A DNA stretch of 63,377 nt, counting the filler, from Halocafeteria seosinensis (taxonomy: Eukaryota), in assembly GCA_001687465.1 (NCBI GenBank). It is 7 parts of 7 records of this genome, joined end to end, with 100 filler letters (N's around TTAATTAATTAA, not from the genome) between each part and the next. Parts side by side here need not be neighbours in the genome. Positions count along the whole stretch, not along the records: positions 35,605 to 40,598 come from LVLI01000010.1; 6 more parts are not named here. One strand, 5' to 3'. The first letter of the stretch is position 1; each line of letters starts with the position of its first letter. Under the pieces are notes generated by a model, which saw only the letters and a program-made list of their open reading frames with translations, did no database searches and was not told the origin of the DNA. Shown one piece after another: positions 38,034 through 40,598 of the stretch. The position numbers and the translations under genes are program-made.

Positions 38034-40598
38034 ATGAGTGGAGAAATCAACCCAACAGTTCTGGAAGAGACCGAGGAAACGCCTGGTCCCGATTTGTCCA
38101 CTGTGTGGGAAGAGCTAGCACCTGCGGTGAACGGTGCAAGCTTACTGAATGCATTACAGTATGTCAAGAAAAAGGCTGCACGAATAAAGGGCAACGCCGG
38201 TCAAATGAACGAGGAGCAATGGAAGAAATGGCTTGCTGACAGAAAGCAAGGGAGAGTCCTTCAAGACAAAAGAGATATGACTCCAGCTGAGGAGCTAACG
38301 GGGTTGGTCCCTTCGCTGGAGCAAGGCATAGATGCAGAGTTAATTCTCGATAAAGTAGTGGATGAACTGCAGTTTTGGGGCCAACAGCAAAGTAAGTGAA
38401 GTTGTATGGAATGAGACGTACCTTTCTGTTTGCCGTCATACACCCTCCATTTTTGGTTTCTGAGGGGGACAAGGGGCTCACACACTTACCTTTTTTGTCC
38501 CGCCGAAGAAAGGGTGTTTGTTGTACCCCGACCTTTTTTGGTGGACGACGTCCTTGAAGTTGATCGGGTCGTTGTTTTCCCGAAACCAGGGGGCATGGAG
38601 AGGGTGATCCAGCAATGAGTTGCGTCTTTTTTTCTGGTTCTTGTCAAACGTGCTCTTGGCGTGGAAGTTGCTACCGAGGGAACCAGGTGGTATCGTGGAT
38701 GGCGGCCTCGTCTTGGTGGTACGTCGAGGCCCTTCTTCGAGTCTTCCTTACGCGTTGCGAGCGGGAAACGAGGAAATGTAAGAGGGGATGGAAATAGTGA
38801 GCCAGCACGGAGCTGTAGCTTGTTACTGGGTCTTCTTAGTCGTGCTTGCTGCGTGGATGTTGCTACCGAGGGAGCAGGTGGCATCGTGGAAGGCAACATC
38901 AATGGAGGACACTTAGACACTTTTTTATTAATATTTGCTTTCTTCCTGATGATGATGATGGTTTTCGTACGAAACTTTGTTTGCCCTTTCAAAGAGATGA
39001 TGTTTATTTCCTGACGTTTTTTCGGTAGATGACCTTGAGGAATCACTGGCGTGGGTGGTTATTTGTGTTAAATTCTTTCGTGCAGAGGGAACGGGGCGAA
39101 AGCGCCAACGTGAGGAGACACAAGGTATGTTGAATTGGAAAATGTATGGTGTAGACGAGGAAGAGAAGCAATAATAAGCATGAGAAAGGATGGAACGGGG
39201 TGTTCTGATGTAGCCAAATTACGCGGCAATAATGATATGTTGTTGCAAGGTGATACGATAGTGCATAAAGGGCAAGGTGTACCATCAGAAGTCTTTCCGT
39301 CGGCTTGACGGTGAACCCTTATTGCTCTGTTGTTTCTTCCTTGGTATTGCTCGAAAATTGAGGAACGGGTAATTGGGCNGTACTAAACAAACAGGGAAAC
39401 TAGGGGAAATGGACCGTGGTAGAAGCAAATGCAAACAGATATCTCTACGGAAGAAACCATCTTTGTGCTTTGGTTACTTGTCCGTATTGTTTGCTGTGGA
39501 TTTGTCTAGAGGAGAAGACTGCACGACTTCCCTTGTTTGGTTTTGTGTCTGCAGGTGGCGTAGCTCCGAATGCTGGAGGCGGCACAGGTAAGTAAGCACT
39601 CAAAACCAAATTCTGAAATCTTTGCAAGAGGAAGATGCTGCTAGTTCCTTGTTGGCAGTCGGTGCTTCAAGTTCTAGTGACGGAGCAGGTAAGTAATTGT
39701 GAGAATCAAGAGCAGAAGTCTCTTGGTAAGGAAGATACTGCTGTTGTCGTTTAATGGTTGAATTCGTCACAATACGGTGTTGAGCCTCTCAAAGACATGC
39801 CTTAAACGGAGAAGGTGAAACGGAGCTTTTTTGTGGTTGGATTCCTTCACCATCTTATCCCTGGTGTTGTTTGCTTTTTGTGATTGCAGGAGGCGGTACT
39901 CATTTAGGCCCAAATGATCTTTTAGGTAAATAAACAGTTGACGATCAAAAGCAGAAATCTCTTCTGGAAGATGATGCTGCTGTTGTGGTGTCGTCCTTCG
40001 AAATACAAACGCAGGTATACTCGCCGGTGACCCCCGAGAACCTATAATAGCCGAAGTTTTGGACACCCTATCTCAGGAGGCTCAATTGTTTACACGGAAA
40101 GATGGCACATACATGGACCTTCCTCCACATGACTGGGCGAGATCTAAACGGGGACAGAAAGTACATATGAAAACGATAGCTCTTTCAGAAAGCGTCGTCC
40201 CGGCATTTATTCCTTTCGCCCGGGGACAGAACGTGCTGCTTATCCGCCAAGCAATGACTGAACTTCTGGATGGCTTCCATGAGTGGATCCAGACTTGTCA
40301 TAAGTCGAATTCTGCTGATATACCCGGACGTATGTTCCTGACGGGGACTGCTGGAATGGGAAAGTCTGTATTGGTGTGGCAGCTTATTCAGCGGGTGGTA
40401 TATGATGGGTATTGTGTCGTGTACTGCACGAAAGATTCTAATGGGAAGGGTGAAGCTTTCGTTATACGAAGGCAGGAAGCGCAAATATCTGTTCAAGTGG
40501 TCACAAATACCAGGGACATACCGCGACTAAACAAGCAGTATTTAGGTGAGAAGGTGGTTCAGATTTTGGATGGTCATAATTCTACAGATATGCCGGAA
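38034..40598 (+). CDS. Crinkler-like multi-exon P-loop NTPase gene (3' end lost in the gap)
   Basis: Proposed exons 38034-38391, 39555-39587, 39659-39688, 40015-40598 with all-phase-1 GT-AG introns; MFLTGTAGMGKS P-loop. Confidence 0.65.

Follow-up and report, generated by a model that had tools for sequence, protein, structure and literature searches.

Three loci in a 63,377-nt stretch of DNA from Halocafeteria seosinensis (GenBank assembly GCA_001687465.1; the whole stretch, filler included, is referred to as the window in the rest of the text) probably represent one gene family, in which variable headers and two unrelated NTPase-nuclease tails are connected by shared microexons, recombination within the introns likely swaps the modules, and the resulting proteins would act in the nucleus by cleaving foreign or rival DNA. 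We give this reading a probability of about two in three. That Crinkler-type proteins have coupled nuclease cores of prokaryotic origin to many different eukaryotic headers is asserted in the literature, and our searches found no mechanism for this beyond the HVLVxxP hotspot of oomycetes; here, the DNA itself shows such a device, in the form of same-phase microexons and paralogous introns that serve two unrelated cores. Header-core swapping would be directly testable in a probably culturable free-living protist that is full of endogenous virophages, and the finding points to possible roles of non-pathogen Crinklers.

Exon structure of the three loci

The window consists of seven contigs stitched together by an N44-TTAATTAATTAA-N44 joiner. 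Locus 1 lies on the contig at 1141-23713, locus 2 on the contig at 35605-40598 (LVLI01000010.1) and locus 3 on the contig at 40699-59838. Since these are three different contigs joined artificially, the loci do not form a cluster, and a three-locus cluster was rejected. The features of the three loci are as follows.

12269..14175, minus strand: locus 1 AAA-ATPase_like plus PD-(D/E)XK exon, DUF1703-type, 1.9 kb
14244..14279, minus strand: locus 1 microexon, 36 nt, GGRVAPNTGGGT, GGRVAPN-type
14280..14400, minus strand: locus 1 intron remnant, homologous to locus 2 intron 2
38034..38391, plus strand: locus 2 header exon, 358 nt, 119 codons plus 1 nt, phase-1 donor
39086..39124, plus strand: microexon A of locus 2, 39 nt, (K)GTGRKRQREETQ
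39555..39587, plus strand: microexon B of locus 2, 33 nt, GGVAPNAGGGT, a paralogue of the locus 1 microexon
39588..40014, plus strand: locus 2 introns 3-5, separated by microexons C and D
39659..39688, plus strand: microexon C of locus 2, 30 nt, VGASSSSDGA
39890..39925, plus strand: microexon D of locus 2, 36 nt, GGGTHLGPNDLL
40015..40598, plus strand: NTPase exon of locus 2, of the Crinkler/RHS type, with GTAGMGKS as Walker A
56328..56823, plus strand: candidate upstream exon of locus 3, low-complexity, basic, phase-1 donor
57009..57288, plus strand: predicted header exon of locus 3, 280 nt, phase-1 donor
57393..57428, plus strand: predicted microexon E of locus 3, 36 nt, (R)GGAASSFIGGA
57520..57540, plus strand: predicted microexon F of locus 3, 21 nt, GASRADP
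57637..59838, plus strand: locus 3 AAA-ATPase_like plus PDDEXK_9-like exon, DUF1703-type, 2.2 kb, reaching the contig end

All introns of the three loci are GT-AG and in phase 1 (predicted for locus 3), and the seven microexons are 21-39 nt long, in phase 1, divisible by three in length and stop-free. The sequence-only reading had named five of these microexons, all of which were borne out by canonical AG/GT ends, lengths divisible by three and phase 1; it missed the two at 39086-39124 and 39890-39925. The large NTPase exons start at 14175, 40015 and 57637. The 5′ end of locus 2 is bounded by an in-frame stop 27 codons upstream of the header start, and its NTPase exon ends at the contig end after 194 codons. 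Two loci had been described as having intact 5′ ends, which may not hold for the locus 3 start at 57009. An additional exon upstream of locus 3 would fit a phase-1 donor located at 56824 together with an acceptor whose last position is 57036. The 5′ end of locus 3 could lie upstream of 57009, the predicted header possibly being an internal 1-1 exon at 57037-57288.

A scan of the window for GCAG-exon-G|GT pairs returned 11 hits, 10 of which are in frame and stop-free, compared to 1.4 ± 1.3 (maximum 6) in 100 Markov shuffles. Seven distinct hits, and one nested, fall inside the linkers, although these occupy just 3.5% of the window. Because the rule was fixed only once the exons were known, this statistic is partly circular, and the real test comes from the reads.

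Locus 2 is spliced as predicted

Four public runs (X1 to X4) contain the locus 2 stretch; they belong to one study with at most three samples (X2 = X3), and none is registered as RNA. We aligned their contigs to 37600-40598 and judged the type of each run from its joints. The contigs are short graph contigs and therefore report local joins, not whole transcripts. GT..AG joints at 38391>39086, 39124>39555, 39688>39890 and 39925>40015 were found in X2, X3 and X4, and the same three runs have matching loose ends at 39587 and 39656 for intron 3 (39587>39659). The splices proposed for locus 2 are thus used, four of its five introns appearing as GT..AG joints and the fifth as loose ends. None of the five joints was found in the X1 contigs, which reach 65 kb. 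Given the joints in X2-X4 and their absence from the long contigs of X1, we infer that X2-X4 are RNA and X1 is DNA.

The RNA-like runs also contain joins that differ from those of locus 2. Other upstream exons are joined to microexon A at 39085/39086 (two contigs each in X2 and X4), microexon A continues into a GGRVAPN-type exon (X2-X4), an NTPase exon of the locus 1 type directly follows a B-type microexon (X2-X4; match of 29/30 nt to the start of the locus 1 NTPase exon), and microexon C is joined to an exon absent from locus 2 (X3). The depth of these mixed joins is comparable to that of the locus 2 joins. In X1, the summed contig depth is about 1000-5700 in most linker bins compared to 350-475 over the header and tail, a quantity that is not a copy number and from which we conclude no more than that several paralogous contigs exist.

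The locus 2 tail is of the Crinkler/RHS type

Pfam analyses of the locus 2 tail gave weak P-loop matches only, with no RHSP or Crinkler match at E ≤ 1. A homologue search found three proteins. The NTPase exon is 66% identical to the protein P0005 and 72% identical to P0004, both from the EukProt transcript set GECG01, which we take to be that of H. seosinensis, presumably a free-living halophilic bicosoecid; P0005 is an assembled transcriptome sequence. Residues 205-725 of P0005 match a CRN cluster with an Atlas score of 0.99 (236 of 256 features) and an RHS cluster with a score of 0.94. Because this full-length paralogue matches both the Crinkler and the RHS clusters, we assign locus 2 to the Crinkler-RHS type, as a predicted NTPase with a putative REase domain deduced from the paralogues P0005 and P0006. 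These two proteins share the conserved segments FE..V, FP.[IV]D.W and VQVT..KRH, presumably the REase motifs, whose locus 2 counterpart lies beyond the contig end. An AlphaFold2 model of P0005 was too poor for use (mean pLDDT of 38.5).

The tails of loci 1 and 3 are of the DUF1703/Medea type

The Crinkler/RHS identity that had been proposed for all three loci holds for locus 2 and fails for loci 1 and 3, which fall in a DUF1703/Medea-like class. Both tails match PF09820, with 37.5 bits for locus 1 (E = 2.9e-9) and 36.7 bits for locus 3 against a cut-off of 26.1, and they are 29% identical to each other over 410 residues, while the tails of loci 2 and 3 have no significant likeness. No Pfam HMM match to PF08011 was found in the tails of loci 1 and 3 at E ≤ 0.1; the C-terminal half of locus 3 obtained an Atlas score of 0.94, with PF08011/DUF1703 clusters in 30 of 30 matches. 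From 80 bacterial loci we retained 63 complete relatives, defined by a whole 5′ end and a DK[TS] motif. The motifs P[RQ]RFGK[TS] and IDE[FY]D (Walker A and B) and E..D..ExK are conserved between loci 1 and 3 and these 63 proteins, and the alignment columns of the nuclease residues E, D and ExK are conserved in 61-63 of the 63. Loci 1 and 3 are therefore predicted to code for a DUF1703/Medea-type AAA-ATPase_like domain followed by a PD-(D/E)XK nuclease.

The combination of PF09820 and PF08011 defines DUF1703, the gene found in the Medea element of the beetle Tribolium according to the accessible text of PMC6387759, and Medea1 is given as CR-NTPase8+CR-REase7 in that of PMC11342252. Since DUF1703 includes Medea1, both tail classes are predicted to be CR-type in the broad sense, with separate origins.

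Several features set the tails of loci 1 and 3 apart from their bacterial relatives, to which they are only 20-30% identical. The bacterial members are headerless single ORFs, with a median of 25 residues before the DK[TS] motif (n = 63), whereas the tail of loci 1 and 3 is one exon behind a phase-1 acceptor. CR-REase7 proteins (Medea/CifB-like) are described in PMC11342252, as far as its text is accessible, by a synapomorphic His shortly after the active-site Glu. The bacterial members have this H four residues after the first catalytic E (E-x-x-[YF]-H in 12 of 12 bacterial relatives among the matches listed), where loci 1 and 3 appear to have Q: locus 1 and the protein P0001 have Q and no H, locus 3 has Q followed by H one place on, and the alignment is gapped at this site. 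P0001 was the only protein found by a search for locus-1/3-type homologues (7996 candidates scored). In a FastTree phylogeny the three eukaryotic DUF1703-type proteins form a clade with a support of 1.0; the outsiders are bacterial only, so that this clade could be a long-branch effect and does not identify a donor. The C-terminus of locus 1 is shorter than those of locus 3 and P0001.

Shortly ahead of the conserved tail, P0001, P0004 and P0006 each have an Ala and then a Gly or Asp. These residues resemble a GCAG|N phase-1 acceptor that has been read through, a weak hint that the relatives may share the gene structure. None of nine proteins had a meaningful match in PADLOC, NCBIfam likewise gave nothing meaningful, and a PDB sequence search returned chance matches only.

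The headers show no significant likeness

The headers of loci 2 and 3 had been called unrelated, and we detected no likeness between them (P = 0.76). No pair among the headers of locus 2, locus 3 and P0005 is significantly alike, the lowest P value being 0.09. That value belongs to the headers of P0005 and locus 3, for which a homology seen by eye was rejected as non-significant. Given this weak likeness, the P0005 header may be distantly related to that of locus 3, and the P0005 header and microexon E may be old partners. The locus 2 header has no match in Pfam, NCBIfam or PADLOC. We found no LxLFLAK ubiquitin-like header, no HVLVxxP motif and no Pfam Crinkler match in the headers, and those of the window, including that of locus 2 with respect to a signal stretch, and of P0005 have no hydrophobic N-terminal stretch. 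The P0005 header carries basic motifs.

Microexons and introns are shared between loci with different tails

Loci 1 and 2 share 200 nt at 88.5% identity, including the GG(R)VAPN exon, which precedes a DUF1703 tail at locus 1 and a Crinkler tail at locus 2. The proposal that one microexon and its introns are joined to different NTPase types was right as to both types; at locus 2, however, the junction is made only via two further microexons. A second peptide, GGAASSFIGGA, lies before the DUF1703 tail at locus 3 and before a Crinkler tail in P0005, a match with a chance probability of 3e-10. P0005 combines a third header, GGAASSFIGGA and a tail 66% identical to that of locus 2, a mix of header, microexon and tail that differs from those in the window and speaks against co-segregation of headers and tails. 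Since P0005 comes from an assembled transcriptome, its header-tail pairing is possibly chimeric across the 36-nt shared exon, and it is the one case in which a whole-gene pairing was seen in a single sequence.

The introns are related as well. Those after microexons B, C and D and the locus 1 intron have a common paralogous 5′ block of about 45-60 nt (z of 6-20). The locus 1 intron tracks locus 2 intron 3 over 42 nt, beyond which the two differ, and locus 2 intron 4 and locus 3 intron 1 share a 21/23-nt block. One X1 contig leaves intron 4 at 39871 and continues as an intron end of the locus 3 type (29/30 nt), and this switch falls exactly at the 21/23-nt block common to both introns.

Mixing at the RNA level by trans- or alternative splicing, or assembly chimeras formed through the short shared exons, would produce such combinations from genes that are themselves unshuffled. 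P0005, being an assembled transcript, and the short run contigs would both fit, as would the joining of microexon A to a GGRVAPN-type exon, given that locus 1 of the window is without exon A. We regard this explanation as very improbable, the DNA of the window itself having a B-type exon before two tail classes on separate contigs and the DNA-like X1 holding intron switches in which the shorter flank measures up to 134 nt.

Two other X1 contigs have rearranged linkers. One puts microexon D before microexon B (39996>39348), an order also found in X4 at a depth of 3.7, and another jumps back 301 nt, so that microexon A is repeated. In both the permuted and the duplicated contig, the breakpoints lie in introns and show only weak microhomology, which argues that not all events were homologous crossovers. 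Taken with the paralogous introns and the microexons found with both tails, these rearranged DNA contigs support the intron-mediated exon shuffling that had been suggested.

The linker could instead be a dispersed repeat, or lie in repeat-rich or subtelomeric DNA, and be scrambled neutrally, with most mixed copies decaying and phase matching letting some survive. Such a passive by-product would account for the weak homology at the two breakpoints, for locus 1, whose 5′ end is broken off by a virophage gene and whose 3′ end is shortened, for an intron-4-like paralogue that stays unspliced at exon-like depth in X2-X4, and for P0004, which as read by eye begins in retained intron-5-like sequence. 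All seven microexons are nevertheless in phase and stop-free, the mixed joins are spliced as deeply as those of locus 2, and the tails retain their Walker and REase motifs; purely neutral scrambling thus appears quite unlikely to us. Under the preferred reading of one family with swapped modules, the damaged locus 1 and the unspliced stretch would still imply that some shuffling products are debris.

Within locus 2 intron 1, 38588-38703 and 38781-38894 form a 75% direct repeat with AG...GT-like ends, possibly the remains of decayed duplicated microexon units. This repeat is covered by many paralogous contigs, some of which skip parts of it with non-canonical ends. Searches of metagenome and viral collections with the microexon pattern, the intron pattern and alignment A1 returned 0 loci.

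A proposed frame-safe connector and its possible function

As the junctions are all in phase 1 and the microexons hold whole codons, any crossover or conversion between linker introns would keep the frame, each linker intron acting as a frame-safe crossover point, and a headerless bacterial-type tail could therefore plug onto any header. The paralogous intron blocks, probably products of tandem duplication of an exon-plus-intron unit, would supply the homology. By gaining a phase-1 acceptor, a headerless tail gene would join the family, with unrelated tails as partners for the exchange of headers and linkers. A length-tolerant tether would be provided by the Gly/Ser/Ala-rich peptides, and microexon A, NLS-like and basic as judged by eye, would add a basic patch to it. 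By analogy with the family, nuclear import would be given by A or by the header, the NTPase would gate the REase nuclease, and the targets would be invading DNA such as virophages, Polinton-like viruses or giant viruses.

A bolder version would have a plug-and-play toxin connector that is still recombining any header with independently acquired NTPase-nuclease cores, headerless bacterial genes acquired horizontally among them, to give a combinatorial anti-virus repertoire, the Crinkler hotspot having been moved into introns. We hold this version to be possible but doubtful.

As to function, we tentatively prefer intracellular defence, at slightly below even odds, because the headers lack a hydrophobic signal stretch and virophages are present in the genome; the family may thus form the toxin/defence repertoire envisaged in the sequence-only reading. 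The main rival to defence is that the same architecture belongs to a selfish Medea-like toxin or mobile element, whose nuclease spreads itself or harms non-carriers and whose shuffling evades host suppression. The DUF1703-type tails of loci 1 and 3 belong to a class found in Medea (PMC6387759, PMC11342252; accessible text), a Crinkler-like protein is described as a genomic parasite in free-living eukaryotes in the accessible part of PMC12957317, and locus 1 adjoins mobile DNA. We nonetheless judge a selfish element unlikely: a self-comparison of the window yielded neither terminal repeats nor a transposase associated with locus 2 or locus 3, and the tail copies are highly diverged (29% and 66-72% identity).

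Comparison with known systems

Like the proteins described here, CR proteins combine a variable N-terminal header with a P-loop NTPase and a REase, and unrelated α-helical headers and free-living hosts are described for them too; their toxicity resides in the REase, under the control of the NTPase, and for those that are not secreted an action against invading DNA has been proposed (PMC5289972, accessible text). The CRNs of oomycetes swap modules at HVLVxxP, a coding motif that follows a ubiquitin-like header (same text), whereas the swap zone here consists of symmetric phase-1 microexons and paralogous introns and comes with no LxLFLAK/Ubl header. The word 'intron' has 0 occurrences in the accessible text of that review, as have 'Crinkler' and 'exon' in PMC5447177. 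The DUF1703 family and Medea1 resemble loci 1 and 3 by the PF09820 domain and the nuclease motifs.

Two further systems resemble the linkers. The brown-algal ROCO genes are stramenopile candidate immune genes that undergo in-phase shuffling of symmetric exons; their 72-nt phase-2 LRR exons are ligand-binding repeat units within one architecture (PMC11378527, accessible text), in contrast to the flexible linker described here, across which entire heads and catalytic tails would be exchanged. The schistosome MEGs have symmetric exons of 6-36 nt, for which shuffling between genes is proposed, but there micro-exons make up about 80% of secreted proteins that vary by alternative splicing (PMC5825161, accessible text), whereas here the microexons form a short linker in NTPase-nucleases predicted to be non-secreted. 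In the literature covered, Zhang et al. 2016 and the bioRxiv supplements being outside its scope, we found no microexon-intron connector in Crinkler-type genes. Header plus NTPase-REase modularity, free-living hosts and the oomycete coding hotspot are known, and what appears new against this literature is a microexon-intron connector common to two unrelated CR cores.

Virophage DNA and other features of the window

The host DNA has about 47% GC and TTAGGG telomere repeats. A GC content of 46.8% and subtelomeric virophages are given for H. seosinensis in the accessible text of bioRxiv 10.64898/2026.06.25.734631 and 10.64898/2026.07.28.741278, the former writing the telomere unit as TAACCCT compared to the 6-mer found here. 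Low-GC endogenous virophage DNA occupies 14400-35420 over two contigs, with genes for Sputnik-type major and minor capsid proteins, an rve-chromo integrase, two GIY-YIG proteins, a packaging-type ATPase and a Prim-Pol. The truncated Prim-Pol ORF (14268-14993, minus strand) runs into the locus 1 intron, whose homology stops at about 14392, and there is no terminal repeat at this join, which may reflect a genuine rearrangement or have arisen in assembly. Locus 1 is a damaged copy that abuts the virophage and is truncated at both ends.

A 1.7-kb virophage segment occurs twice (33719-35504 and 16489-18187) with 96% identity. In the copy at 33719-35504, a pectate-lyase-like gene is interrupted by TTAGGG repeats from about 35420 onwards, which looks like telomere healing of a break within the virophage. 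Repeated palindromic units lie inside the virophage at 21924-22217, and a perfect 78-bp palindrome lies at 42872-42949.

An antisense ORF at 11911-12384 (plus strand) overlaps the shortened 3′ end of locus 1 and carries an LLDPRF motif, which to us recalls hAT transposases; Pfam gave no support for hAT in this ORF. A weak hAT dimerisation fragment is found at 40700-41247, a PIF1-like helicase (Helitron-like) contig at 59939-61984, and recombinase-like ORF pieces, by eye only, at 2060-3311. Finally, two divergent large ORFs at 5281-8067 (minus strand) and 8297-11305 (plus strand) resemble surface proteins, with little Pfam support; one of the pair has Gly/Cys-rich repeats and a 156-bp Ser/Thr tandem array, and the other is Cys-rich with multi-pass membrane regions.
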